Shown here in pieces: positions 372 through 14,314 of a stretch of 64,000 nt of DNA. The DNA comes from Phenylobacterium sp. Its GTDB lineage: Bacteria > Pseudomonadota > Alphaproteobacteria > Caulobacterales > Caulobacteraceae. The stretch lies in the NCBI RefSeq assembly GCF_041919955.1, contig NZ_JAYRSU010000008.1, positions 2,943-66,942 on the forward strand. Direction: 5' to 3'. A program made the translations under genes and the position numbers. The notes below the pieces were generated by a model, which did not search any database, was not told the origin of the DNA, and saw nothing but the letters and a program-made list of their open reading frames with translations. Each line of letters begins with the position of its first letter. Position 1 is the first letter of the stretch.

Positions 372-646
372 GGTTGCGATTTCCCCAAGCAGGCCGCCAG
401 CAGCGCGGTCGGCCCCTTTGAGCCAGGCGCCGGTCAGGGCATCGCGACGTGAACAGCATCGAGGCGCATCGTCAACGAAATATGATATTTATCGTGTAAT
501 TTTGCGCACAAGTCGCGCACCCGACCTGCATTCAGGAAAATTGCCTGTTCTAGATGGATAATTGTCGCCCTACAGTCAGCGTGCCGACCGCTGCGCGACC
601 AGTCGCAACCACCATAGAGCGCCTAAGCCGAAGGACTGCCGCCGTC

Positions 647-2086
647 ATGACCGATCCGTTCCGACTGGACGCAGCAGCCGGCCAGTTGCTTCGCGCCGGC
701 AAGCCCGCCGAGGCCCTCGCCCTGCTCCGCTCCCGACCTGCGCCGACCCAGGCGTTCGGATTGTCGAGCGCACTGGAACTCGAAGCGCTGATCGCGCTTG
801 GACGTCGCCGGGAGGCCAGAGCGGCCCTCGACGCCGCCCTGACCGTCAAAGAACCGACACCGGACGCTCTGGACGCCCTCGCCTTCTTCGCACGTCAACT
901 GGAACTGCACGACGTCTCCAACCGGCTCTACCAGCGCACGGTCGAGCTCGCCCCGCTCGATCCCAGATACTGGTTCAACCTCGCCACCAGCGAGCGCAGC
1001 CTTGGACGCCTGGAAGCGGCGGCGGACGCCTGCAACCGCGCCCTGGCGCTCGACCCCGATCATCGCGCAGCCCTATTGCTGCGCTCGGAAGTGTCGCGCG
1101 CCACAGCGAGCGCCAATCATGTGGACGACCTGAAGGCCCGGCTGGAGCGACGGCTCCCGCCGGGCGACGAGATCGTTTTCGCCTACGCCCTCGGCAAGGA
1201 ACTCCATGAGCTCGGGCGCTACGATGAGGCCTTCGGAGCTTTCGCCCGCGGCGCGGCCGCCCGGCGCCGCGCTCTCCAGTACGACGTGCGGCAGGACGAG
1301 TTGAAGCTGCAGCGCATTGCAGCAGCGTTTTCGCACGCGCCGCCCCAGCCCCCCCCACTGCCCCCCGGCCGGCACATCTTCATCGTCGGCCTGCCACGGT
1401 CGGGGACGACCCTGACGGAACGGATTCTGGGCGGCCTGCCGAACGTCCGCTCGAACAACGAGACGGACAACGTCTCGACCGCGTTGATGCGCTGGACGCC
1501 TCAAGGACCGGACGACGTGTTCGAGCGCGCCGCCAGGGCCGATTTCGTTCGCATGGGGCAAGACTATGAAGCCTTGGCGGACCTCGACGACTTCAAAGGC
1601 AAGATCATCGAGAAGCTGCCGTTCAACTTTCTCTATGTCGGGGCGATCCTGCGGGCGCTGCCCGACGCCTCGGTGGTCTGGTTGCGCCGCCACCCGATCG
1701 ACAGCTGTTTTGCAATGTTCCGCACACTGTTCGGCGCAGCCTACCCGTTCAGCTACGACTTCGAGGAGCTGGCGAGGTACTTCGCAGCCTACGAACGGCT
1801 GATGGCGCATTGGGTGAACCTCCACCCCCACCGCATACTGCCGGTCGAATACGAGCAGTTGGTCGCCGCGCCGGAGGCGATCGCGCCGCAGCTTGCCAAG
1901 CACTGCGGGCTGCCATGGGACGCCTCAGCGCTTGAGATCAGCCGCAATCGCTCGGCGTCGTTGACGGCAAGCGCGGCCCAGGTGCGCGGGGGCATCTATC
2001 AGTCTTCGTCGGGCATTTGGCGGAGCTACGGAGCGCACCTCCAGCCGCTGGCCGATCTATTGGCGAGGCAGGGCGTCACGCTCTGA
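647..2086 (+). CDS. TPR-repeat sulfotransferase family protein
   Basis: N-terminal TPR-like helices, PAPS-binding loop IFIVGLPRSGTTLTERIL, and EKLP and RHPIDSCFA motifs. Start set at ATG 647 (ORF track starts at 554). Confidence 0.85.
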   Translation: MTDPFRLDAAAGQLLRAGKPAEALALLRSRPAPTQAFGLSSALELEALIALGRRREARAALDAALTVKEPTPDALDALAFFARQLELHDVSNRLYQRTVELAPLDPRYWFNLATSERSLGRLEAAADACNRALALDPDHRAALLLRSEVSRATASANHVDDLKARLERRLPPGDEIVFAYALGKELHELGRYDEAFGAFARGAAARRRALQYDVRQDELKLQRIAAAFSHAPPQPPPLPPGRHIFIVGLPRSGTTLTERILGGLPNVRSNNETDNVSTALMRWTPQGPDDVFERAARADFVRMGQDYEALADLDDFKGKIIEKLPFNFLYVGAILRALPDASVVWLRRHPIDSCFAMFRTLFGAAYPFSYDFEELARYFAAYERLMAHWVNLHPHRILPVEYEQLVAAPEAIAPQLAKHCGLPWDASALEISRNRSASLTASAAQVRGGIYQSSSGIWRSYGAHLQPLADLLARQGVTL

Positions 2087-2105
2087 CCGCGCCGCCATCG
2101 CCGAT

Positions 2106-2137
2106 AAGAAAAGCGGCCCGGAACGTGTCCGGACCGC
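2106..2137 (-). terminator. Rho-independent terminator-like hairpin for the minus-strand TBDR transcript
   Basis: Stem GCGGCCCGGA / TCCGGACCGC (one mismatch), 5-nt loop, and AAGAAAA on the + strand (U-tract on the minus strand). Confidence 0.55.
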
Positions 2138-2190
2138 AAGGGCGACGTCGACAATCGACGCGGGGAGAAAGAGGTTCGCCGTGGGCGACC

Positions 2191-2532
2191 AGAGGCGTTC
2201 AGGCCACGCATGATCTGACGCTGGGCGCCCATGAACTGCGAGCCGCTTGAGGTCACCACCAGGTTTGGCACCTGGCGCGACAGATCCTCTACAGTGGCCA
2301 CGCCGGTGCGCGCGACCTGCGCCGCAGCGACCGCGGTGATGTTGTAGGGGATTTCCGTAACGTCCTGCGCGCGGCGAGCGGCGGTGACGACGACTTCATC
2401 GACGGTCGCGCCTTGTCCCGGCGCGGCTTCCGTCTGGGCGGCGGCGTGACCGCTCGCAATGACCATGAACAGGCCGCTCAGCGCCGACGCGCCGAGGAGC
2501 TGCCTCATTCGACTTTTGCTGTACTCCCGCAC
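2191..2532 (-). pseudogene. TonB-dependent receptor, N-terminal remnant (signal peptide, TonB box, start of plug)
   Basis: GTG start with GGGAGGGA RBS; signal peptide ending HAAAQ; DEVVVTAARRAQDVTEIPYNITAV; RQIMRGLNAS. The reading then runs into non-homologous sequence and the terminator, with no barrel. Confidence 0.85.
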
Positions 2533-2647
2533 GTTTCCCTCCCGAAACCTACGGCGCTACCGAGTTCGCCCTCGTGGCGGAACCCGCTTTCGCAGCGCCA
2601 AGCGACCGCATCGCTAAGCGATTTTTATCAGTTTCACAAAAGATAAA

Positions 2648-2673
2648 TCGAACAAAGATCGATAAAATTTCGC
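2648..2673. promoter_or_regulatory. Phased TCGA-N7-TCGA-N7-TCGC array upstream of the TBDR remnant
   Basis: TCGA ACAAAGA TCGA TAAAATT TCGC in an AT-rich patch. Confidence 0.45.
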
Positions 2674-2849
2674 TTTGTGGCGTAGGCGCCTCGCGCACCG
2701 CCACTTGCGCGGCACATCGGCGGCGATTTGCACGCAAACTCCTCAGCCAGGAGGGAAAAGGGCAAAATTCCGTGTTTTTCGAGAAAATTCCACTCCAAAA
2801 GGTTCGATTGGCCGGGCGCGAGCCGGTGACAGCCGCCCCTTAACCGCTC

Positions 2850-2897
2850 TTGACGCAGATTTCCGTCAAGGCGATGGTCACGATTGAAATCGAATTT
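2850..2897. promoter_or_regulatory. Inverted repeat TTGACG-N8-CGTCAA plus ACGA-N6-TCGA motif upstream of the SDR
   Basis: TTGACG (Caulobacter sigma70 -35-like hexamer) at 2850-2855 and its inverse at 2864-2869; AAATCGAATTT at 2887-2897. Confidence 0.4.
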
Positions 2898-3023
2898 TTT
2901 GCAATATGTAACCGATATCGATTGAATCTAGTGCGGTCGACCGCGACCGCCGGATCGCGACACCAAAGGCACCGCCGGCGCGCCCGCGCCGTCCTGGCTC
3001 AAAAGACAAGGGGACCAAAACCA

Positions 3024-3809
3024 ATGGCCGATCGAGACACCACGGTCCGGCAAATTCCTGCGCCGCTGCAAGGCAAGACCGCGCTCGTCACCGGCGGCAC
3101 GCGCGGCATCGGACGGGGGATCGCGCTGTCGATGGCGGCCGCCGGGGCCTATGTGATCATTTCGGGGCGCGACGAAGCGAACGCCCAGTCCGCGGTCGCT
3201 GAAATCCGCGACGCGGGCGGCCGGGCCGACTATCTGGTGGCCGACCTCTTCGACGAGGCGGCTGTCGACGCCCTGGTGCCGCGGACGATTTCCGAGTTCG
3301 GCGGCCTGGACGTCCTGGTCAACAACGCCGGCATCGACGCGGACGCCCCGGCGCGCGCCTATCCGCTGTCCAGCTGGAAGCGGGTTATGTTCATGAACCT
3401 GGAGGCCCCGTTCCGCCTCTGCATGGCGGCCGGCGAACACTTCTTCGAACGGGGCGGCGGCGCGATCGTAAACATCGCCTCCGTTCTCGGTTCGGTCGCG
3501 ACGGTGGAAGCCGTGGCCTATACGAGCGCCAAGCACGGCTTGCTCGGCCTGACCAAGAACCTCGCCATCGAATGGGCGCGCCATGGAATTCGCGTCAATG
3601 CGGTGGCGCCTGGCCTTATCCAGACCGACATGACCAAGGGCCTGTGGGAAAGTCCGGCCGGGGACGGCTATGTCGCCTCCCGCATTCCCGCCGGCCGGAT
3701 CGGACAGCCGAAGGACATCGGGGCCGCGGTCGTCTTCCTCGCCTCCGACGCCGCCGACTTCATTCATGGCGAGAGCATCACCGTCGACGGCGGCTTCCTG
3801 GCCACCTGA
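3024..3809 (+). CDS. SDR family oxidoreductase (KduD/gluconate 5-dehydrogenase-like)
   Basis: TGGTRGIG, NNAG, YTSAK (YxxxK) and VNAVAPG motifs. ATG 3024 follows a GGGGA RBS. Confidence 0.92.
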   Translation: MADRDTTVRQIPAPLQGKTALVTGGTRGIGRGIALSMAAAGAYVIISGRDEANAQSAVAEIRDAGGRADYLVADLFDEAAVDALVPRTISEFGGLDVLVNNAGIDADAPARAYPLSSWKRVMFMNLEAPFRLCMAAGEHFFERGGGAIVNIASVLGSVATVEAVAYTSAKHGLLGLTKNLAIEWARHGIRVNAVAPGLIQTDMTKGLWESPAGDGYVASRIPAGRIGQPKDIGAAVVFLASDAADFIHGESITVDGGFLAT

Positions 3810-3869
3810 CTGCGCCCTGGAGCCGCTCGGGTCGCCGCGGCGGCCCGGGCCAACCGTTCTGGAGGTCCC

Positions 3870-4682
3870 ATGCAGGCGCCCGCCCCGATCCCCGAAACAA
3901 GCAGGAAGAAGCGGCGCGCCTCACCGCGCCAGCCGTCACGCGGTCGCGGGCTGGCGCGCTATGCTGCGCTTCTGGACGCGGCCCACGACCTCCTCAAGCG
4001 GGAGGCGCCCGACGCCATCGGCCTCTATCAGATCGCCGAGCGGGCCGGCGTACCGCCTGCGTCGGCCTATCACTTCTTTCCGACCAAGGAGGCCGCCTAT
4101 GTCGGCCTGGCGGAACGCTATTGTGACGAGATCGTGCGCATTCACAGCGTGCCGATCCCAGCCCGCGACATTGCGAACTGGCAGGACGTGTTTCGCATCG
4201 ATCTGAGGCGGGCGATGGCCTATTTCAACAGCGAGCCTTCGGCCATGAAGATCCTCTACGGCGGCTACGGCGGCGTAGAGGCGCGGAACATCGACAAGAT
4301 CTTCTCTCGCAAGCTCGCCCAAGCGAACTACAGCCGCCTCGACAAAATCTTCCACATGCCGGTCATGCGCGACGCGGAGAAGAAATTCGAGCTCCGCCTG
4401 GCGATCCTCGACAGCATCTGGGAGGTGTCTGTTCGCCGGCACGGGCATATCACCGAGGACTACTTCACCGAGGCGCTGGACGCCTGCAACGCCTACATCC
4501 GACTGTTTCTGCCAGAACATCTGGAACCACGGGAGATCCTGGTGCGCGCCATGGAGCGCGACGCCGTGGTCCATCTTCATCTTCCCGGCGACCAGATCGA
4601 GATTTCACCACGGGACATCGAACTGGAGCATTGGAATGGCGATGACGGGCCGAGCCCGCCACCGCCCTTCGCCTATTCGTAG
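3870..4682 (+). CDS. TetR/AcrR regulator, paralog 1
   Basis: [31 protein letters not shown]-domain KILYGGYGG is shared with the 7382 and 13568 genes. Confidence 0.9.
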
Positions 4683-5629
4683 TCGATGGCGAAGCTGTAC
4701 TTCGGGTCGTAGTGGGCCTCCCAATAAGACTCCCAGACCTGACGGGTGATCGGCCCGACTTGGCCGCCCCCGACCGGTTGACCGTCGAGTTCTGTGATCG
4801 GCATGACCCCGCCTGCGGTCGTGCAGATGAAAATCTCGTCGGCATGGTAGAGCGCGTCCACCGGCACATAGGTCAGCTCGGCCTTGATCCCCTTGGCGGC
4901 GGCGATTTCCAGGACCGTGCGGCGGGTGACCCCTTCGAGCACGCCACGCGAAGGCGTCGTGAGCGCCCCGTCCCTGACCACGAAGATGTTGTATCCGCCG
5001 CCCTCGGTGATGTTTCCGTCCCCGTCCGGAAGCAGGGAATAGACCGCACCGCGATCCATGGCCTCAAGCCAGCCGCGTACGAAGTCGCCCCACTGCAGGT
5101 TCTTGATCGTCGGGTCCATAGCGCCCGGCGGCGTGCGGCGGACCGTCCGCGTGACGACCGCCTTGCCGCCCGTCGGATGAAGCTGCGGCGGCATCGCCCA
5201 GACGTAGGGCATGACCATCAGGTACAGGCTGTTTTCATAGCTTTGATACTCGCGAATGAACTTCAGGCCGCGCGTGACGATGAGCTCGACATAGGCGTCG
5301 CGGATGCCGCTCTTGACCACCATCTCGATGAGGGTCTTGCGGACGCTCTGGCGATCCAGCGGGATGCGAAGCCGCATCTTTTCGCAGCTTGCTTCGAGGC
5401 GATCGAGGTGATCGTCGAGGCGGAAGAAGCGCCCGTCCCAAACCGCGGGAACATCGTAGGTCAGGTCCGAGCGCAGGAAGCCCTGATCAAGGATCGGGAT
5501 TCGCGCCTCCGCCAGCGGGTAGAGTTCCCCCTGGATCCAGGCCACGCCCCCGGCCAGCGGATTCTCAGACACCTCGAGCGCGCTCCGGCGCGCCTCGTGC
5601 GCTCCAAGCACCTTCTCCATCGAGTACAT
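4673..5629 (-). CDS. PLP fold-type IV aminotransferase, (R)-selective amine transaminase type
   Basis: [30 protein letters not shown] (PLP Lys), LEGVTR, TTAGG. N-terminal helix MYSMEKVL...NPLAGG and C-terminus YSFAIDY resemble fungal R-ATAs as I recall them. Confidence 0.93.
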
Positions 5630-5657
5630 GGCCTTCTCCCGATCGCCCAGAAAATAG

Positions 5658-5734
5658 TCGTCAAATATCTACGATTATGACGAACGATGGCCAATCAAGG
5701 AGAAAATTTCAACACTAAAGTCGTCAATTATCGA
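5658..5734. promoter_or_regulatory. TCGT-N6-TC(G/T)A motifs upstream of the R-ATA
   Basis: TCGT CAAATA TCTA (5658) and TCGT CAATTA TCGA (5721). Confidence 0.5.
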
Positions 5735-5800
5735 ATAATTTGGGACTGGCAGCGGGCTGCACCGGCTGCGGGCGCATTCCCTCCCGCAGCCAGCCAACAA

Positions 5801-7108
5801 TCATTGGCTTGCGGGGGTCTGAACGGGCGCGGCCTGACGGCCAGCGGGCAGCGCCAGGCTGCAGATGGCGGCCGGCAGGTAGACAAGCGCCACAAAGACC
5901 AGGAAGCCGGAGGGGCCCAGATGGTCGAAGCTCCAGCCCGCGAGGCTTCCGCCCGCCGCGTAGCCGGCCTGCAAGGCGAAGTACCATCCGCCATAGGTCA
6001 CGGGAAACACCGCGTCCCCGAACTGGCGTCGGGTGAGCGTGATCCAGAGGACCTCGCCGGCGCCGAAGGCGAAGCCGAGAGCGAGCGCGCCGGCCCCTGC
6101 GAGGATCACGCTCCGGCTCTCAGGGGCGAGCGCCAGGGCAAAGACGCCAAAGCTGATCGCCGCCACGATCGCCAGCGCGCTCCACCTCGCGTTGAAGCGG
6201 TCGAGCATCCAGCCGATCGCGACCGAGCCCGTCGTGCTCCCGCCGGCGGTCATCCCCAGCAGAGTCGCCGCAGCAGCCGGCGAGAAGTGCGCGCGCCGCA
6301 ACAGCGCCAGCTCCTGGGTCAGGACGGCGATCGAAGCCATGCCGGCGCCGATCACCGCGACGAACATGCAGCCAGCCACCCACGGATTGATGGCTTTCAC
6401 GTCGCCGGACTGGGTATTGCCCGACTCGCCGCGCGCCGTCCGCGCGCCGTCGATCTCGCGCGCGGCGATCGGGTCGCCGTCCAGGCCCAGCCCCATCTCC
6501 GTCGGCGACGATGGACCGCGCGACAGGAGCGAGATGGCCACGGCGACCGCCAGAAGGCCGCCGGCGACGACCAGCGTCGCCGGCCGCCATCCCAGCGTCA
6601 GAACCAGCGCCTCAGTGGCCGGTGAGAGGGCCAGTCCGCCGGTCGAACCCCCGGCCCAAACCAGGGCCATGGCTGTGGCAAACCGCCTGGAGAACCAGCG
6701 GGCCGTCAGCATCGGGACAGCCGCGATCGCGAGGACCTTGCCGAAACCCATGACGATGCGCAGCAGATAGAGCTGCCAGAATTCCGTGACGAAGATCAGG
6801 GAGGCCAGCACCAGCGCTTCGGCGCAGAGACCGAACAGGATCAGGCCCCATGGGCTGAAACGCCGCGTCAACGGGCCATAGAACAGCGCCAATGGAGCGA
6901 CCAGCCACATCGCCGAAACGAGGCCGCCGGTTTGCGCCGCGCTCCACCCGTGCTCCTGAGCTAGGGGCTGGGCGACCACGATGAACGAATAAATGCTGGA
7001 GCCGAAGATCGCGAACGTACAGAGGAAGAGCGCCAGAACGACGCGCCATCCGAAGTAGACGCCACGCCCCAAGGACATCGACGCCGCCGCCGGCGGATAT
7101 TCCGTCAT
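5801..7108 (-). CDS. MFS transporter (OFA-like)
   Basis: About 12 hydrophobic segments; YFGWRVV N-terminus; ARWFSRRFATAMAL and GWMLDRFNAR motifs. Confidence 0.9.
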   Translation of the reverse strand: MTEYPPAAASMSLGRGVYFGWRVVLALFLCTFAIFGSSIYSFIVVAQPLAQEHGWSAAQTGGLVSAMWLVAPLALFYGPLTRRFSPWGLILFGLCAEALVLASLIFVTEFWQLYLLRIVMGFGKVLAIAAVPMLTARWFSRRFATAMALVWAGGSTGGLALSPATEALVLTLGWRPATLVVAGGLLAVAVAISLLSRGPSSPTEMGLGLDGDPIAAREIDGARTARGESGNTQSGDVKAINPWVAGCMFVAVIGAGMASIAVLTQELALLRRAHFSPAAAATLLGMTAGGSTTGSVAIGWMLDRFNARWSALAIVAAISFGVFALALAPESRSVILAGAGALALGFAFGAGEVLWITLTRRQFGDAVFPVTYGGWYFALQAGYAAGGSLAGWSFDHLGPSGFLVFVALVYLPAAICSLALPAGRQAAPVQTPASQ

Positions 7109-7381
7109 GCCGCTTTCCTCCCTCAGGGTCGTTCGCCCCGTTTGCGCGACTAGTATCGTCGCGCCACACAGAAAGTCGACAAAATTTGGCTTATTCCGGA
7201 CATTCGCAGATATTTTGAGCGAATTTGCGCATATATGTCGATTTTTATACAGACCAGGTGCAACCTGGACGAAGGCCTCGCCATGCAGCCCTGACCGCCC
7301 CAGGCCCGCATCCTCGGACCCCCAAGGGTTGCCGGGGAACGGCGATGCCGTTTAGCTCAGGCGCGAGGAGAGGAGACCTTG

Positions 7382-8131
7382 ATGCCGAGTCCGACCACCG
7401 CTGACGACGGCGCCTCCAAGCGCAAGCGCCGCGAAGGGCCGCGGACGCCGTCGCGCGGCCGAGGGGTCGCGCGGTACGGGGCGCTGCTGGACGCTACGGA
7501 GGCCCTGCTTCAGGTCGAGAACCCCGACACCATCGGTCTGTATCAAATCGCCGAACAGGCGGGCGTTCCACCTGCTTCGGTTTACCACTTCTTTCCCACA
7601 AAGGAGGCGGCGTATGTCGCCTTGGCTGAGCGCTACCTCGAAGGCCTGATGGAGGTTCACCGCGCGCCGATCGAGGCCCGTCTGCTAGGCGGATGGCAGG
7701 ACCTGCTGCGGATCGATTTCCGGCGGGCGATGGAGTTCTACAACGCCCGGCCGCCCATGAATAAGATTCTCTATGGCGGCTACGGGGGAATTGAGGCGCG
7801 CAACATCGACAAGCTGTTCTCCCTGAAACTGGCGAACGCGCACTACGATCGGCTGGACCGCATCTTCCATATGCCCTTCATGCGCAATCCCGGCGCCTTC
7901 TTCGAGAACCGCCTTGGAATCCTGGACGCGCTCTGGTCGATTTCGGTGCGTCGCTACGGCAGCATCACCGAGGAGTATCTCCTCGAAGCGCAGAGAGCCT
8001 GCAGCGCCTATACGCTGGTCTACCTCCCGCAATATCTCGAACCGCGCGAGTTGCTGGTCGAGGCCGCCGCGCGCGGCGAGGCGTTGACCCTGGCGTTCGA
8101 CCTGCCGGCGCAGGACGAACCCGCGGCCTGA
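7382..8131 (+). CDS. TetR/AcrR regulator, paralog 2
   Basis: [46 protein letters not shown] upstream; TTG 7379 is an alternative start. Confidence 0.9.
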   Translation: MPSPTTADDGASKRKRREGPRTPSRGRGVARYGALLDATEALLQVENPDTIGLYQIAEQAGVPPASVYHFFPTKEAAYVALAERYLEGLMEVHRAPIEARLLGGWQDLLRIDFRRAMEFYNARPPMNKILYGGYGGIEARNIDKLFSLKLANAHYDRLDRIFHMPFMRNPGAFFENRLGILDALWSISVRRYGSITEEYLLEAQRACSAYTLVYLPQYLEPRELLVEAAARGEALTLAFDLPAQDEPAA

Positions 8132-8254
8132 ACCTGCCGCCAGGATGACTTGCACGTCGCCGCTGTGAGAGGGCGCCCGTCCCCGACGTCGCTCATTCGC
8201 CAAACCGCACAAGATGCTGCACGCCAGCGCAATGAGGCCTGCGTGGCCGCATTC

Positions 8255-8344
8255 AAATTCGATTTATTTCGATTAAATATCGACCTTCACCGCGAAAACC
8301 TATTGATGGAGATGAAAAAATAAAATTTCATCGACAAAACTCGG
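8255..8344. promoter_or_regulatory. Phased TCGA array upstream of the second MFS gene
   Basis: TCGA at 8259, 8269 and 8280 (10-11 bp period), plus TCGA CAAAAC TCGG at 8331, in a very AT-rich patch. Confidence 0.55.
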
Positions 8345-8359
8345 TGCGCCTCGGGGGTC

Positions 8360-9562
8360 ATGGCTGTGCAGCAATCTGTCGATCTGGCCCAGGAGACCGC
8401 CCCGTCGCAGCGATCGGTGGACGCGCCGTCCGCCGTCGTTGCAGCGGCATACCTCATCGCCCTCAACCAACTGGTCGCGAACATCCAACCGCTGCTGCTG
8501 GGTGCGCTTGCGACGGATTATGGCTTGAGCGACCGACAGCTCGGCCATGTGAGCGCATTCTACGTCGGCGCAGTCACCCTGTGCACCTTGTCGGCTCCAT
8601 TGTGGATCCGCCGGATCAACTGGCGCCTGGCCACGCTCGTATCCGTCGCAGGCTGCGTCGCGGCCTTCGCCTGGGGCGCGACGCTGAACGGCGTGGGGAT
8701 GTTCCTCTTGCTGTTCGCCATCCTGGGCTTTGCGAAGGGCTTCTTCGGCGCCCCCGCGTTCGCCAGCCTCGGCGACGGTTCGAATCCTGACCGCGGCTAC
8801 GGGCTGTCCACCGTGCTGCAAAGCCTGATCGCCGCGGGCGCGGCGGCTCCAGTGGCGAGCTACATCATTCCGACCTACGGTGTCAGGGGCCTCTTCATTT
8901 CACTCGCCCTCGTCTACGCTACCGGGATCGTGGCCGCGCGGTGGATGCCAGTCGGCGCGCGCTCGCCGCGTGCGGCAAGCCTGAGCCCCGCCGAACCCGG
9001 AGAAGCATTGCTGTCTTGGGCGGCCATTCCGCCCCTGGTCGCGGGGTTCGCCGTCGCGCTGTTCGCCGGAGGGATTCTGGCTTTCTGGTATTTCGTCGAA
9101 CGGATCGGCGTCGCGCGCGGCGTGCCCGCACAGACCATCGGCCTGACCATCAGCCTGGCCGCTTTCGCTTCAATTCTCACCTCGGCGATCAACACCTGGC
9201 TGGGGGGCCGCGTACCGAGCCTTGCGTTCGTCGCCGCCGGGACGGCGCTGCTCCTGGCCTCCTACGCGGTTCTGCTCGTCCCGGGCGATCTGGCCTTTGT
9301 CGCCTGCAACCTGCTGTTCGCCCTCGGCTGGGGGTTTGCGCAGCCGGCCTACTGGACGATCGTCCGCAGGGTCGATCATACGGGGCGGCTGTTTGTGGCG
9401 GCTCCCGCCGCCTCTGGCGCCGCCGGCGTCGCCATCGGAATCTTCGCCGGGCCGGTGATCGAGTCGGGCGGATACTCCGGACTGATAGGCCTCAGCTCGG
9501 CGCTGATCGCGGCGGCCATCCTCTGCATCGTCGGCGTGCTGCGCTTTGCGGCGGCTCGCTGA
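8360..9562 (+). CDS. MFS transporter
   Basis: About 12 TM segments; PLLLGALATDYGLS...WIRRINWR, same subfamily pattern as the MFS domain fused to the P450. Confidence 0.9.
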   Translation: MAVQQSVDLAQETAPSQRSVDAPSAVVAAAYLIALNQLVANIQPLLLGALATDYGLSDRQLGHVSAFYVGAVTLCTLSAPLWIRRINWRLATLVSVAGCVAAFAWGATLNGVGMFLLLFAILGFAKGFFGAPAFASLGDGSNPDRGYGLSTVLQSLIAAGAAAPVASYIIPTYGVRGLFISLALVYATGIVAARWMPVGARSPRAASLSPAEPGEALLSWAAIPPLVAGFAVALFAGGILAFWYFVERIGVARGVPAQTIGLTISLAAFASILTSAINTWLGGRVPSLAFVAAGTALLLASYAVLLVPGDLAFVACNLLFALGWGFAQPAYWTIVRRVDHTGRLFVAAPAASGAAGVAIGIFAGPVIESGGYSGLIGLSSALIAAAILCIVGVLRFAAAR

Positions 9563-9598
9563 TCGGGTTCGCCGATCAGCGCCGTCGAGGCAGCCTGG

Positions 9599-10447
9599 CT
9601 AGTTCAGCAAAGTGATCGGGTCGACCATCTGCCCGTCCACCTCGACCCAGCCCATGTGATTGACGCCTGACGACCAGCCGAGCAGGCGCTGAATTGTCTC
9701 CGGATAGCTGGCCACGACGTCGCGCGACAGCGCCAGGTACATGTTCTCCTCCTGGCGGACATTGGCCGCATCGATCGTGATCGTCAGGCCGGTCCTTAGC
9801 TGGTCGGAGGTCGTGTTGGTCCCGCCGGCGTGATAACAGCTGCCGACGAACAGCAGCGCCGACCCGGACTTCATGATCGTGGGGCGGGCCTCCGACATTT
9901 TCGGGACGCGCTCGTCATCCCAAAGGTGGCTGCCCGGAATAACCAGCGTGCCGCCGTTCTCGGCGGTGAAGTCGGATATCGCCACCATGACCTGGAGGCG
10001 CGCCTCGCGGCCATAGGTCGGATGTCGCCAAAGGAAGGCCGTATCGTCCCGATGCAGCGGCTGGGCTCCCTGGCCGGGCCCGATCTGAATGAGCTGGGTC
10101 ACGCCGATCCGAATGCCGGGATAGAACTCCCGCCTCTGGTCTCCCGCCCCGTAGACCACCGGCCGATTGATCAGCGCTTCGGCTACCGGAAGATATAGGG
10201 GGTGCGTGGCGACGTCGGCCATGCGACGCGAGTGGGCGAAGAGCGCGCTCATCCGCTTGGTCTGAGCGCCCGAAAAGGGATCCCCGCCCGTCGATTTCGC
10301 CGCCAGCTTCGGCAGCAGATCCGCTTTCAGTTCGGAGATCGTTTCCGCGGGGAGAAAGTCCTCGATGATGACTCCTCCATCGCGCTCGAGGATCGCCAGG
10401 ACGTCCTGGGCGGTCGACGCCGCGGTCACCCTCTCGACTTCAGCCAT
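9599..10447 (-). CDS. Phytanoyl-CoA dioxygenase (PhyH) family Fe(II)/2OG dioxygenase
   Basis: QPLHRDD (HxD), AISDFTAENGGTLVIPGSH, CYHAGG (distal His). Confidence 0.92.
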   Translation of the reverse strand: MAEVERVTAASTAQDVLAILERDGGVIIEDFLPAETISELKADLLPKLAAKSTGGDPFSGAQTKRMSALFAHSRRMADVATHPLYLPVAEALINRPVVYGAGDQRREFYPGIRIGVTQLIQIGPGQGAQPLHRDDTAFLWRHPTYGREARLQVMVAISDFTAENGGTLVIPGSHLWDDERVPKMSEARPTIMKSGSALLFVGSCYHAGGTNTTSDQLRTGLTITIDAANVRQEENMYLALSRDVVASYPETIQRLLGWSSGVNHMGWVEVDGQMVDPITLLN

Positions 10448-10521
10448 GACAGTTCACTCCCCTACGGGCGGGCCGGCCAGACACGCCAATCAAACATCGT
10501 TAGTCGCGCTACCGCGACACA

Positions 10522-12051
10522 TCAGACCGTTTCCGAGGATGCGCGCAGGACCTGCGCAGCAGCCTGGCCGTCATATCGGAAGGCGGGACCGTCCAGGTCG
10601 ATCGCCGGAAAGGCTTCCTTGTCGGCCAGATAGTCCTGGCTATGGCGCCATTCGGGATGATCCAGGCTGCGCGGAAGTTGCGGTAGCGCGCGGGTCAGGT
10701 AGCCCGGATTGAAGTTCTCGGGGTCGATCCACGGTCGCCGCGGCAGACGATCGACGTCCGACGGCGGCGAGACCTCCACCCAATTGGCGCCCCGCGCATC
10801 GAGGTGCTCCAGCAGCCGGATCACGAACTGGGCCAACAGGTCCGAACGGAGCGTCCAGCTGGATCGGAAATAGCCGAACACCCAGGCGAGGTTCGGCAGG
10901 CCGCTGAACATCATGCCGCGATAGCCGACGCTGCTCGCGATATCGAAAGGCGCCCCGTCGACCGTAAAGGCGATGTCGCCGAAGACATTCATGTTGAAGC
11001 CGGTGGCCGCGATCACGACGTCCGCCGCCAGGGTCCGGCCTGACTTCAACAGCACTCCGTCGGGAACGAACCGCTCGATCTCGTCGGTGACCATGGCGGC
11101 GCGCCCGGCGCGGATCGCGTGCAGCATGTCGGCGTTCGGCAGGAAGGCCAGGCGCTGGCGCCAGGGCCGGTAGCTGGGCGAGAAGTGCGCCCGCGTGATC
11201 TCCGGCCCTACGATGGCTTCGACCGCCGCCAGCAGCTCGGCGCGGACCTCGTCGGGCGTATCGCGGCAACTGTCCGCGAGCGCAGCCTCCTGGGCGAGGA
11301 TGTCGCGCCGTACGATTTCGTGGATCCAGGCCTCGTCGACTTTCAGCGCCCGCAGCCGATCGGCGAGCTCATTGCTGTTGTCGGCATAGGCGAAATAGGT
11401 CGGCGAGCGCTGCAGCAAGGTGGTTTCCGCGCAGGTCTCGGCGATGTTCGGAACGATGGTCGCCGCTGTCGCGCCCGACCCCACCACCACGACCTTCTTG
11501 CCGGCCAGATCGAGGTCGTCGGGCCACTCCTGGGCGTGCACCAGCCGGCCCGCGAAGTCGGCTTTACCTGGCCAATCGGGCATATGGCCTTCGCGATGGC
11601 GAAAGTATCCCTGGCACATGAACAGGAAGCGGCCGGTGAATACGCGGACGCCGCCATCCGCGGTCTCGGCGATCACCGTCCAGAGGCCCGCCTCGCTGCT
11701 CCATCGCGCGTCCGCTACGCGGTGGCCGAAGCGCATGTGGCGGCGCAGATCGTTCTCGTCCACCGCTTCGCTCAGATAGTTCAGGATCTCCGCCCCTGTG
11801 GCGATCGGAGGGCCCGACCACGGCTTGAACCCGTAGCCGAAGGTGTAGAGGTCGCTGTCCGACCGGATCCCCGGGAAACGGTTGGTGCGCCAGGTTCCCC
11901 CGAACGAGGCCTCCGCATCCAGGATAACGAAGCTCCGTTGCGGCGCATCGCGTCGCAGGTGATAGGCCGCGGCGATCCCGGAGATCCCCGCCCCGACGAT
12001 CAGGACCTCAAAGTGCTCCGGCTTGGCCGCATCGGCGATCTGCGCGCTCAT
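10522..12051 (-). CDS. Flavin monooxygenase / Baeyer-Villiger monooxygenase, EthA/AlmA type
   Basis: GAGISG, FPGIRSDSD, BVMO fingerprint FAGRLVHAQEWP, GSGATA, LQRSPTY. ATG 12051; TTG 12060 is an alternative start. Confidence 0.92.
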   Translation of the reverse strand: MSAQIADAAKPEHFEVLIVGAGISGIAAAYHLRRDAPQRSFVILDAEASFGGTWRTNRFPGIRSDSDLYTFGYGFKPWSGPPIATGAEILNYLSEAVDENDLRRHMRFGHRVADARWSSEAGLWTVIAETADGGVRVFTGRFLFMCQGYFRHREGHMPDWPGKADFAGRLVHAQEWPDDLDLAGKKVVVVGSGATAATIVPNIAETCAETTLLQRSPTYFAYADNSNELADRLRALKVDEAWIHEIVRRDILAQEAALADSCRDTPDEVRAELLAAVEAIVGPEITRAHFSPSYRPWRQRLAFLPNADMLHAIRAGRAAMVTDEIERFVPDGVLLKSGRTLAADVVIAATGFNMNVFGDIAFTVDGAPFDIASSVGYRGMMFSGLPNLAWVFGYFRSSWTLRSDLLAQFVIRLLEHLDARGANWVEVSPPSDVDRLPRRPWIDPENFNPGYLTRALPQLPRSLDHPEWRHSQDYLADKEAFPAIDLDGPAFRYDGQAAAQVLRASSETV

Positions 12052-12142
12052 ATTCGACAATTGTCCGCAATGCTGACGAAGCGGCGGCGCCGGCCTGAAA
12101 AAAGCCCGCAGGCGCCGCTGCGAGAAGGGTTCTCAGGCGCGC

Positions 12143-13036
12143 CTACAGCGCCAGATGCTCTTCCAGAGGCCGCGTATGGGCTCGCCACAGGAAGCCGGGC
12201 TGCTCGCCCTTGTAGGAGATCGAGCGGAACCCGAGGTAGGACTGCAGGCGCTGCGGGTAGGTCCGCGCCTCGTCCGCCGTGATGACATGCGGCCACGCCT
12301 CTTCACCCAGGATGATCCCGGGGCTGAACGCGGTCGACAGCACCCGGCGTCGCCGATCCTTCGTGACGTTGGCGCCGCCGCCGTGCAGCACCTTGCCGCT
12401 GATGCAGAGCACGTCGCCGGGGAACATGGTCGCCGGAATGGTCTGGGACTGTTCTCCCGGCGTCTCGTAAGATTCCCAGTGGTTGCTGCCGGGGATCACG
12501 CGGGTCGCGCCCATTTCCTCGGTGACGTCGGTCAAGGCCAGCAGGAAGTTGACCTGGAGATTCGGACCGCCGGGGCCGCCGACGCCGAGGACCTCCATCA
12601 GGCCGCCGCCATCGCGGTGCAGTTCCTGGGGCCGCTCGCCGGGATAGATCTCGATCCCGTGGCTCGCATACATCGTATGGCTCCCCGCCGGCCCCGGCAT
12701 CATCGCAGCCAGATACTCCCGGATGATCGGTGCGTCGTAAAAGGCCTCCCGCAGGGTGCGGCTGTATTTGACGCAGTGGGCCAGGCGCTTGGTCTTGTGG
12801 CCCATGAAGTCGCCGACGAAGGTCTGTCCGCCATCCGAGAAATTGCCGCCCGCCAACCGATCGAACTCGCGGTCGAGATCGGCGTTGATCGCGGCCACCT
12901 CGGCCGCCGAGAGGGCGGCGGTCAGGATGACGCCTCCCTCCAGTTCGACGACGGCGGCGACCTCTTCGGCCGGCGCCCCGAACGGCAGGCGGCGCATGGT
13001 GGCCGAGGGGCGCGCGGAGACGGCGTTCTGGGACAT
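12143..13036 (-). CDS. PhyH family Fe(II)/2OG dioxygenase (second copy)
   Basis: QELHRDG, ALTDVTEEMGATRVIPGSNHW, VLHGGGAN. Start set at ATG 13036. Confidence 0.92.
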   Translation of the reverse strand: MSQNAVSARPSATMRRLPFGAPAEEVAAVVELEGGVILTAALSAAEVAAINADLDREFDRLAGGNFSDGGQTFVGDFMGHKTKRLAHCVKYSRTLREAFYDAPIIREYLAAMMPGPAGSHTMYASHGIEIYPGERPQELHRDGGGLMEVLGVGGPGGPNLQVNFLLALTDVTEEMGATRVIPGSNHWESYETPGEQSQTIPATMFPGDVLCISGKVLHGGGANVTKDRRRRVLSTAFSPGIILGEEAWPHVITADEARTYPQRLQSYLGFRSISYKGEQPGFLWRAHTRPLEEHLAL

Positions 13037-13097
13037 GTCATTCAAACTCCATTGGAGATCAGATGGGGGCATGGAGATCGCGCACCGCGCCCGGCAC

Positions 13098-13550
13098 TCG
13101 ACAAAAATCGTATGGGGAAGCACTCGGCTTCTGACTCGAAAGCCCACGCCGGTCGGGCCGCCCCTTCACGGCCGCGCCGGGGAATCTCACCGTCATAATA
13201 TTGATCCCAGGGGACAAAATGCCCACCGTCGACGGCCTTTTCATCTCGCGCGTATGGCCGGGACTGCAAGACGCCATGTGAGACCCTCAGCGAGTTTCTC
13301 CCGCTCCTGAAACTGATAGAAAATCAATTTAAATCGAATTTCAAGCGGTTCTTGAGCTTTTCAAAGAATAGCGAGCCGCGCCCACGCTCAGCGCCGGGGC
13401 GCGGCCCCACGCGGCGCCCAGCGCACGCCGCAGCCAATCCGCCTCACGAAGCACGAGCCGACAGCCCGCAGACGCGACCCAAGGCCTGAATTCTTGCCAA
13501 GTTGACGACTTTCCGCCATCTCAGACCGCAGGATAGTTGAATAATATCGA
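13098..13550. promoter_or_regulatory. Three TCGA-N6-type motifs in the divergent PhyH2/TetR3 intergenic region
   Basis: TCGA CAAAAA TCGT (13098), TCAA TTTAAA TCGA (13324), TTGA ATAATA TCGA (13537). Confidence 0.5.
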
Positions 13551-13567: not shown

Positions 13568-14314
13568 ATGGGGACATCGGACGCCGCCGCGGGGAAGGAG
13601 ACAAAGCCTCGCCGACGCGAAGGTCCGCGCACGCCGTCCCGCGGCCGGGGCCTGCTTCGGTTCAACGCGCTGCTGGACGCGACTGAGAGCCTGCTGCAGT
13701 CGACCAACCCGGACGAGATCGGTCTCTACCAGATCGCCGAGCGAGCCAACGTTCCGCCGCCGTCCGCTTACCACTTCTTTCCGACCAAGGAGGCGGCCTA
13801 CGACGCCCTGGCCCAGCGCTTCATAGTGCAGTTGCTGGACGTCCACAGGACGCCTATCGAAGCGCGCCGCCTGAACAACTGGACCGACCTGTTCCTGATC
13901 GACATCGACCGCGGCCGCGCCTTCTACAATCGCCACCCGCCGGCGCTGAAGATCTTCTACGGCGGCTATGGCGGCGTGAACGCCAAGAACATCGACCGGA
14001 TCGCGGCCGACAAGATCTCGACCTCGAACTACGACCGCATGAACCGCGTCTTCCACATGCCGATCCTTAGCGACACCCATCGCCTGTTCGAAGTGCGCCT
14101 GGGAATCCTCGACGCCATATGGACCCTGTCGGTGCGTCGCCACGGCTACATCACCCAGGACTATCAGGATGAAGCTGTGGAGGCGTGCCTGGCCTATAGC
14201 CGCGTCTACCTGCCGGCCCGGATCGAACGACGCGGCTCGTTGATCCAGGCCGCAGAGCGCGGGGAGAGCGTTACACTGCCCTTCGAGCCGAGCGCCGACG
14301 AACTGGAAGCCTAA
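13568..14314 (+). CDS. TetR/AcrR regulator, paralog 3
   Basis: [39 protein letters not shown]. Confidence 0.9.
   Translation: MGTSDAAAGKETKPRRREGPRTPSRGRGLLRFNALLDATESLLQSTNPDEIGLYQIAERANVPPPSAYHFFPTKEAAYDALAQRFIVQLLDVHRTPIEARRLNNWTDLFLIDIDRGRAFYNRHPPALKIFYGGYGGVNAKNIDRIAADKISTSNYDRMNRVFHMPILSDTHRLFEVRLGILDAIWTLSVRRHGYITQDYQDEAVEACLAYSRVYLPARIERRGSLIQAAERGESVTLPFEPSADELEA

Follow-up and report, generated by a model that had tools for sequence, protein, structure and literature searches.

A degenerate 14-bp palindrome is the predicted shared operator of three TetR-family paralogs in an accessory gene island of Phenylobacterium

We analyzed a 64,000-nucleotide stretch of a Phenylobacterium sp. 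genome (contig NZ_JAYRSU010000008.1, positions 2,943 to 66,942 of the forward strand, or C8:2943-66942 in our labeling; hereafter, the window), the first 14.4 kb of which form a gene island encoding three TetR-family regulators, TetR-A, TetR-B, and TetR-C. The genome comprises 4.15 Mb at 68% GC, and all positions below are those of the window unless a contig label is given. The TCGA pairs that recur between the genes of the island are copies of one degenerate 14-bp imperfect palindrome, TCGA(T/C)A-WW-T(A/G)TCGA, with cores exactly 10 bp apart and an AT-rich spacer and flanks. A preliminary description of this DNA had proposed that such dyads are a shared operator for the three TetR paralogs. 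Comparative evidence, namely, nearly identical helix-turn-helix motifs and a dyad conserved beside orthologous regulators, upholds this proposal, and we put at roughly 0.8 the probability that the palindrome is the shared operator of the three TetRs and serves ligand-released repression.

Because TCGA is self-complementary, the dyad, which looks like a direct repeat, is really the inverted repeat TCGATA-NN-TATCGA. The strict form TCGW-N6-TCGW, on either strand, occurs in the island only at 459, 2880 (read as WCGA), 5721, 8259, and 13098, with an N7 form at 2648 and 8269. At 482, 5658, 7176, 8331, 13324, and 13537, there is one good core with a degenerate partner 10 bp away (ATGA, TCTA, TTGG, TCGG, TCAA, and TTGA, respectively). 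Candidate sites were scored in bits over 4.15 million genome positions with a weight matrix trained on sites from other genomes only. By this measure, 11 of the 13 dyad coordinates first listed were borne out, whereas 459, which has a GC-rich spacer (−1.2 bits), and 7146 (2.1 bits only) were rejected as operators. The sites at 482, 2648/9, 2880, 5658, 5721, 7176, 8259, 8269/70, 13098, 13324, and 13537 all rank between 1 and 113 among the 4.15 million positions. Taken alone, the dyad at 8331 is weak (4.6 bits), but its TCGA also forms the right half of the 8321 site (18.3 bits). About seven sites absent from the earlier list were also found, at 555, 2618, 2659, 2912, 7228/7238, 8321, and 12054. 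Two repeated words had been placed exactly: AAATCGAATTT at 2887, 13331, and, reversed, 8255, its three copies in the whole genome all being intergenic and within the island; and TCGACAAAA at 7176, 8331, and 13098, with a further copy at 4339 inside the tetR-A gene and 13 copies genome-wide. The dyad does occur in nearly every intergenic region of the island: all six promoter-bearing gaps and the start of a monooxygenase gene have sites, and the short 3′ gaps have none.

The signal is concentrated in the island. The three best matrix matches of the entire genome lie at 8259, 13324, and 5721, and the sites at 482 and 5658 rank fifth and ninth. Among 113 genome matches of at least 12 bits, 20 fall inside the island, compared with 0.39 expected from its length and about 2.6 expected if every such match fell in AT-rich patches (37.5% GC or less over 40 nt); there was no match of at least 12 bits in the remaining 49.6 kb of the window. 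When an AT-rich background model was used, ranks 1, 2, and 4 were still taken by island sites. The N6 dyad is enriched 11-fold relative to the rest of the intergenic DNA of the genome. Nor is the motif equally frequent in AT-rich DNA generally, since, relative to the other AT-rich patches, the dyad is enriched 32-fold and TCGA 3.3-fold; thus, the signal is more than AT-richness alone.

A home-made expectation-maximization search of the MEME type on the six island gaps returned only general AT-richness, and orthologous DNA was used instead of the motif discovery that had been suggested. In 27 loci encoding relatives of the island TetRs, 22 matches to at least 11 of the 12 consensus positions were found against 0.31 expected from 40-nt block shuffles (an enrichment of about 70-fold), and 51 matches to at least 10 positions were found against 5.4 expected. 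In a test that makes no use of the consensus, the distance from TCGA to TCGA in AT-rich patches of 24 nonredundant loci peaked at exactly 10, with 14 pairs compared to 0 to 2 at nearby distances. When sites were picked on the two cores alone, the first core was followed by T and A and the center was W-rich, which gives back the consensus. The palindrome lies in promoter gaps of the same gene cluster, beside orthologous TetR genes, in Sphingopyxis, Phenylobacterium, Caulobacter, Hyphomonadaceae, and Rhizobiaceae, and the gaps it occupies are those of TetR, TonB receptor, sulfotransferase, class-IV aminotransferase (AT4), MFS transporter, PhyH, and SDR genes. Upstream of TetR orthologs, the dyad of a Caulobacter locus reads TTCGTTATTTATCGATTATAGATCGAG, that of a Phenylobacterium locus ATCGTTATTTATCGAATATAG, and that of a Rhizobiaceae locus ATCGATATTTATCGCTTAAAT. 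In the AT4 promoters of five lineages, it ends 7 to 8 bp before a TTGAC(A/G/A) hexamer, while the surroundings have diverged. Beside more distant homologs, the cores and their spacing are kept and the inner bases are changed, as in TCGAC-N4-GTCGA (loci L025, L026, and L028).

The cluster itself also recurs. By tblastn, TetR, TonB receptor, sulfotransferase/TPR, MFS1, AT4, MFS2, PhyH1/2, SDR, and PQQ alcohol dehydrogenase genes were found together in Sphingopyxis, Phenylobacterium, Caulobacter, and Hyphomonadaceae, with AT4 80 to 87% identical across the clusters, and AT4 and TetR recur in Rhizobiaceae. By these comparisons, the island is a conserved, mobile gene cluster. The motif co-occurs with the TetR clade as well: the exact pattern was found 5 times in 0.395 Mb around TetR genes of the clade compared with about 62 times in about 1,360 Mb from 401 genomes of the same order, a density about 280 times higher. 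Only 6 of these 401 genomes encode a close TetR homolog. Of 20 order-wide matches that we examined, one lies beside a TetR homolog, and it alone had the AT-rich context taaTCGATA...TATCGAtta; around the other 19, the DNA is GC-rich and looks coding, and TetR homologs are absent. The pattern TCGAYAWWTRTCGA matched 53 of the 401 genomes, compared with 8 for a reversed control, but we rejected this excess as a sign of general enrichment, because TCGA is 2.6 times commoner than AGCT in the present genome, which explains the ratio. The order-wide counts serve as a background rate only.

These results bear on the idea that a different factor binds the palindrome, either a chromosomal global regulator or a MucR- or GapR-type silencer of AT-rich DNA, while the TetRs use another site. 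In its favor, the island is missing from 24 genomes of the same genus, and its gaps account for 9 of the 500 AT-rich patches of the genome, the kind of DNA that xenogeneic silencers target (the other 50 kb of the window hold 4). The best matrix matches, however, are concentrated in the island instead of being spread across the other AT-rich patches, and the motif travels with the TetR clade across orders of differing chromosomal background. Helix-turn-helix dimers read 14-bp dyads with cores 10 bp apart, and the palindrome has just this form. Moreover, the top matches outside the island lie in unrelated loci, such as a rhamnose-type locus. We therefore consider a different binding factor very unlikely and retain the TetRs as the proteins predicted to bind the palindrome. 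A wider regulon was likewise rejected: the best off-island matches (C8:75541, C6:55826, and others) are in unrelated loci, and no evidence for it was found. The first of these, TCGAAAATGATTGA, is the fourth-best match of the genome and lies 8.6 kb past the window end between divergent genes. From N-terminal sequences alone, we read these genes as encoding a putative sugar kinase and a putative rhamnulose-1-phosphate aldolase/SDR-type protein, and the match is probably the site of another regulator, outside the island regulon.

The three regulators share a DNA-binding head. Pfam PF00440 (TetR_N) matched all of them, at 34.6, 31.7, and 29.0 bits against a gathering cutoff of 24, and no curated NCBIfam family or Pfam C-terminal domain matched TetR-A, TetR-B, or TetR-C. 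They are 53 to 59% identical to one another (TetR-A and TetR-B, 59%). The helix-turn-helix is nearly invariant among the three and also across 24 homologs, and the recognition helices differ at one position each. Directly before helix 1, each protein has an arginine-rich stretch, KRKRREGPRTPSRGRG, that is conserved across the clade; the close clade retains the arm R-x-P-S-R-G-R-G, and conservation across the 24 homologs covers R22, P24, and R28. An AlphaFold model of TetR-B (predicted local distance difference test [pLDDT] score, 89.7) has ten helices, with residues 1 to 27 disordered and residues 6 to 17 below a pLDDT of 50. When this model was searched against PDB with Foldseek, the top 50 hits were all TetR-family chains, the nearest being 3bni, 3bhq, EthR, and FrrA; no close relative with a solved structure was found.

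In a maximum-likelihood tree, TetR-A is sister to Sphingopyxis regulators (support, 96/87) and TetR-C to a Hyphomonadaceae regulator (locus L010; support, 99/97), while TetR-B branches apart within the same 12-member clade. Given these placements in different subclades, the three TetRs are old paralogs, not recent duplicates, and the island looks like either a mosaic of three modules or an old triplication. The clade is small: among 1.84 billion representative proteins, 32 clusters (50% identity) match at an E value of ≤1e-30. In most other genomes, each cluster has just one member of the clade; therefore, one regulator type serves all cluster promoters there. In the Sphingopyxis and Rhizobiaceae clusters, a second, far more distant TetR gene (31 to 39% identical) adjoins the clade member, at about 6250 to 6940 in loci L005, L006, and L029 and at about 5990 to 6630 in L013 and L014.

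The near identity of the recognition helices makes it probable that the paralogs recognize a common set of sites, with cross-regulation among the three. The main alternative is that the operators are partitioned, with each paralog preferring its own half-site variant (TCGATW or TCGWCA) and the island consisting of three separate modules. Both flavors are present, TCGAT(A/T) half-sites at 482, 2880, 8259, and 13324 and TCG(A/T)CA half-sites at 5658, 5721, 7176, 8331, 12054, and 13098. The tree is consistent with partition too, as each TetR falls in its own subclade, nearer to regulators of other genera than to its paralogs, which fits a three-module mosaic, and distant homologs do have clade-specific inner positions, of which the L025, L026, and L028 form given above is an example. 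Yet the recognition helices differ by only one position each; the flavors are mixed within sites and promoters, such as TCGTCA/TATCGA at 5721 and TCGACA/AATCGT at 13098; and both are also in use in genomes whose clusters have only one member of the clade. We thus regard partitioned operators as possible but distinctly less likely than a common one.

To place the shared operator in its setting, the genes of the island, with products assigned by Pfam, are as follows.

554-2086, + strand: TPR-sulfotransferase
2026-2532, − strand: TonB-receptor Plug fragment, 168 amino acids (aa)
3024-3809, + strand: SDR (ATG at 3024)
3870-4682, + strand: TetR-A, 270 aa, TetR_N domain; downstream of the SDR gene
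4673-5629, − strand: class-IV aminotransferase, AT4 (ATG at 5629)
5801-7108, − strand: MFS1
7379-8131, + strand: TetR-B, 250 aa, TetR_N domain (ATG at 7382); divergent from MFS1 and upstream of MFS2
8360-9562, + strand: MFS2 (ATG at 8360)
9599-10447, − strand: PhyH1
10522-12051, − strand: FMO/EthA-like monooxygenase (ATG at 12051)
12143-13036, − strand: PhyH2 (likely ATG at 13036)
13568-14314, + strand: TetR-C, 248 aa, TetR_N domain; divergent from the PhyH2-FMO-PhyH1 genes

A PQQ alcohol dehydrogenase gene comes after TetR-C, and Pfam detected no regulator genes in the island beyond the three TetRs. The island TetR regulators were found in 0 of 24 genomes of the same genus, so the island is accessory; most likely, it is a horizontally acquired island for amine degradation. 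Its AT-rich gaps fit a foreign origin and suggest possible targeting by nucleoid-associated silencers.

The predicted sites, with matrix scores and, where given, genome ranks, are as follows.

482-495: predicted operator ATGATATTTATCGT, centered at −66 from the sulfotransferase/TPR ATG (554); 21.6 bits, rank 5
555-568: operator-like TGGATAATTGTCGC, over the sulfotransferase start codon; 15.1 bits, rank 36, two consensus mismatches
2618, 2648/9 (N7), and 2659, to 2672: three weaker or overlapping sites upstream of the TonB-receptor gene (start 2532, − strand); 14.4, 17.2, and 13.7 bits
2880: ACGATTGAAATCGA, 138 bp upstream of the SDR ATG (3024); 14.5 bits, includes AAATCGAATTT
2912-2925: CCGATATCGATTGA, 106 bp upstream of the same ATG; 16.2 bits
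5658-5671: TCGTCAAATATCTA, predicted proximal AT4 operator, centered at −36 from the ATG (5629, − strand); 19.9 bits, rank 9
5721-5734: TCGTCAATTATCGA, predicted distal AT4 operator, centered at −98; 27.8 bits, rank 3, one mismatch
7176: TCGACAAAATTTGG, in the MFS1/TetR-B divergent gap; 15.0 bits
7228/7238, to 7251: CGCATATATGTCGA and TCGATTTTTATACA, in the same gap; 15.5 and 15.0 bits
8259-8283: three TCGA cores (8259, 8269, and 8280) forming two overlapping predicted operators upstream of MFS2; 30.2 bits, rank 1, and 16.0 bits
8321-8344: TAAAATTTCATCGA and TCGACAAAACTCGG, proximal MFS2 sites with a common core at 8331; 18.3 and 4.6 bits
12054-12067: TCGACAATTGTCCG, abutting the FMO ATG (12051, − strand); 18.4 bits, rank 15
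13098-13111: TCGACAAAAATCGT, centered at −68 from the likely PhyH2 ATG (13036, − strand); 12.0 bits, rank 113
13324-13337: TCAATTTAAATCGA, in the PhyH2/TetR-C divergent gap; 29.8 bits, rank 2, includes AAATCGAATTT
13537-13550: TTGAATAATATCGA, centered at −24 from the TetR-C start (13568); 14.9 bits, rank 41

Every transcription unit of the island thus has at least one site whose center precedes the start codon by 10 to 140 bp. Such sites are also found upstream of the genes for TetR-B and TetR-C themselves, the 13537 site probably serving TetR-C autoregulation; TetR-A is predicted to be cotranscribed, by read-through from the SDR promoter. The 13098 site is intergenic because the PhyH2 start codon is placed at 13036. 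Within the 482 site, GATATTTATCG is identical to a site in a Rhizobiaceae locus (L013), and the 5721 site lies 8 bp upstream of a TTGAAA hexamer, like its counterparts in orthologous AT4 promoters. The site at 555 to 568 either is an operator that covers the translation start or indicates a true start codon further downstream. A terminator-like hairpin (12124-12105, − strand) follows PhyH2, between PhyH2 and FMO, and the 12054 site comes after it.

As to how the shared operator would work, a TetR homodimer would set its two helix-turn-helix motifs in successive major grooves, centered on the two cores, and the disordered arm before helix 1 would probably, like that of SimR, extend into the minor groove, here narrow and AT-rich. 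Ligand-free repressors sitting on one to three operators per promoter region would block transcription from the promoters of sulfotransferase/TPR, the TonB-receptor remnant, SDR-TetR-A, AT4, MFS1/TetR-B, MFS2, FMO, and PhyH2/TetR-C. Release of the repressor would follow when a substrate or intermediate of the pathway, presumably an amine, a ketone, or an alcohol, binds the C-terminal pocket, and the diverged ligand domains of the three paralogs would supply different inputs.

The preliminary description had also proposed helically phased multisite arrays, and this part fared less evenly. Overlapping cores 10 to 11 bp apart are present at 8259-8283 (10 and 11 bp), 2649/2659, and 7228/7238; a Caulobacter locus (L008) has the same three-core layout as 8259-8283, and three-core arrays also occur in L006 and L013. 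In addition, five site pairs are 62 to 63 bp apart, namely, 5658/5721 (63 bp), 7176/7238 (62 bp), 8259/8321 (62 bp), and one each in L010 and L011. On the other hand, the orthologous loci have no clear peak of core distances at 20 to 21 bp. Separate sites tend to be spaced by multiples of about 10.5 bp (nominal Rayleigh P value, about 1e-4), a result computed from pairs that are few and partly dependent. Helical phasing is thus suggestive on these spacings. A more elaborate scheme is conceivable, in which three old paralogs with one DNA-reading head and different pockets, united in a mosaic island, would compete for the same operators, each promoter would integrate up to three chemical signals, with complete derepression requiring all ligands (AND logic) or with mixed dimers forming, and the 62- to 63-bp same-face pairs, which bracket core promoters, would form loops through dimer-dimer contacts. 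We consider this combination improbable; if true, such signal integration by competing paralogs with a repression loop would be unusual for the TetR family.

Promoter positions were predicted from sequence, and a σ70 consensus scan found no more sites than in its shuffles. The possibility that the repeats are themselves promoter elements or duplicated promoter DNA, with TCGACA/TTGACG halves acting as −35 hexamers in AT-rich UP-element DNA, was considered here. TCGACA and TTGACGA do resemble the −35 sequences TTGACA and TTGACG, and the consensus scan took TCGACA at 7241 as a −35; furthermore, the TetR genes are paralogous, so their upstream DNA could be as well. Against this, the motif is symmetric, with a second core fixed at 10 bp that a −35 element does not need, and a separate TTGAC hexamer follows the palindrome in AT4 promoters. 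Similarity between sites ends at operator length, about 22 to 30 bp, and the paralogs are ancient rather than recent duplicates. This origin of the repeats is therefore highly improbable. Methylation sites of the CcrM or restriction type were also rejected, since GANTC is not common to the sites and methylation does not explain the fixed 10-bp dyad.

The position of some sites raises the question of whether the TetRs act partly as activators or antisilencers from upstream of the −35. The AT4 palindrome of the five lineages would be centered near −50 if the hexamer 7 to 8 bp downstream of it is the −35, and some TetR-family proteins both activate and repress, LuxR/HapR (PMC8034623) and RutR (PMC4325133) being precedents. 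Most promoters in the island, however, also have a proximal site near the start codon (5658, 8321/8331, 13537, 12054, and 555). As far as is known, TetR regulators encoded next to the catabolic or transport genes that they control are almost always repressors released by a ligand, which also argues against activation. We judge an activating role unlikely and keep repression as the preferred mode of action at the shared operator.

Several points weigh against the shared operator and its repressor role. Matrix scores partly reward AT-richness, and the intergenic DNA of the island is unusually AT-rich; the consensus used for collecting orthologous sites was picked by eye, partly from the same sequences. 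Compared with orthologous sites, those in the window match the consensus less well (1 mismatch at best and 2 to 5 in most), and some may be nonfunctional, perhaps decaying along with the shortened receptor gene. The 12054 site lies so close to the FMO ATG that a ribosome-binding site would not fit between them, and none is visible. Finally, several promoters have their best site upstream of the likely −35 instead of over the core promoter, and this is not the classic position of a repressor.

Three further observations concern the genes and gaps of the island. The TonB-dependent receptor gene (2026-2532, − strand) is reduced to 168 codons covering the Plug domain only and converges on the sulfotransferase gene, whereas its ortholog in Sphingopyxis and related loci encodes 847 aa and is divergent from the sulfotransferase gene; therefore, the outer-membrane importer has been lost from the island by rearrangement. 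The remnant still has operator-like sites upstream (2618-2672). AT4 (4673-5629, − strand) is 79 to 87% identical to the Sphingopyxis, Phenylobacterium, and Hyphomonadaceae copies, while the adjoining TetRs are only about 60% identical, a pattern that suggests unusually strong constraint on, or recent transfer of, the enzyme. In the MFS1/TetR-B gap, 7176-7207 is 75% identical to 4339-4370 within the TetR-A coding sequence, and the translation of 7185-7337 weakly resembles FMO residues 395 to 453 (the sole weak match in a relaxed tblastn search, with an E value of 5e-4 in a tiny database). These resemblances within 7176-7337 may be relics of older genes in the gap or chance.

The predicted system has parallels among known regulators. 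Like TetR/tetO, the island TetRs combine an N-terminal TetR_N helix-turn-helix with an all-helical ligand domain, and the sites form a short palindrome, with half-site centers about 10 bp apart, located in the promoter gaps of targets and, by position, of the regulators themselves. Unlike TetR/tetO, the island has three paralogs with the same recognition helix and about eight promoters, and its TetRs have no curated NCBIfam or Pfam C-terminal match. In Mycobacterium tuberculosis, the TetR repressor EthR controls ethA, which encodes an EthA-type flavin monooxygenase, and binds cooperatively as several dimers to one long operator region of 55 bp. Similarly, the island has an FMO/EthA-like monooxygenase gene with a predicted operator at its start and core arrays and possibly phased site pairs in several promoters, and EthR structures are among the nearest structural neighbors of the TetR-B model, at only 15 to 16% sequence identity; the island sites, in contrast, are discrete 14-bp palindromes. 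SimR of Streptomyces antibioticus is a TetR-family repressor whose flexible N-terminal extension, rich in arginine, binds in the minor groove (PMC3241653), and similar N-terminal contacts have been reported for Vibrio LuxR (PMC8034623). The island TetRs likewise have a disordered arginine-rich stretch before helix 1, and their predicted operators have AT-rich spacers and flanks. They have no detectable close sequence relation to SimR, and the minor-groove contact is predicted here by analogy. The operator TCGAYA-WW-TRTCGA (as six consensus 14-mers) was in no searchable paper, and a keyword search of the literature on the gene cluster returned nothing relevant.

Altogether, the mechanism would be a standard TetR switch of a well-known kind. 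Our analysis provides a concrete predicted operator for a small, uncharacterized TetR clade and defines its conserved regulon, a mobile cluster in which a highly conserved class-IV aminotransferase is accompanied by an EthA-like monooxygenase and two PhyH dioxygenases, along with transporters and a TonB receptor; in the island, the sulfotransferase/TPR gene and the receptor remnant would belong to the same regulon. The three natural repressor/operator parts could become inducible promoters or biosensors for the putative amine-type substrates, and together they make up a compact natural model for studying how paralogs that share an operator partition or integrate their signals.

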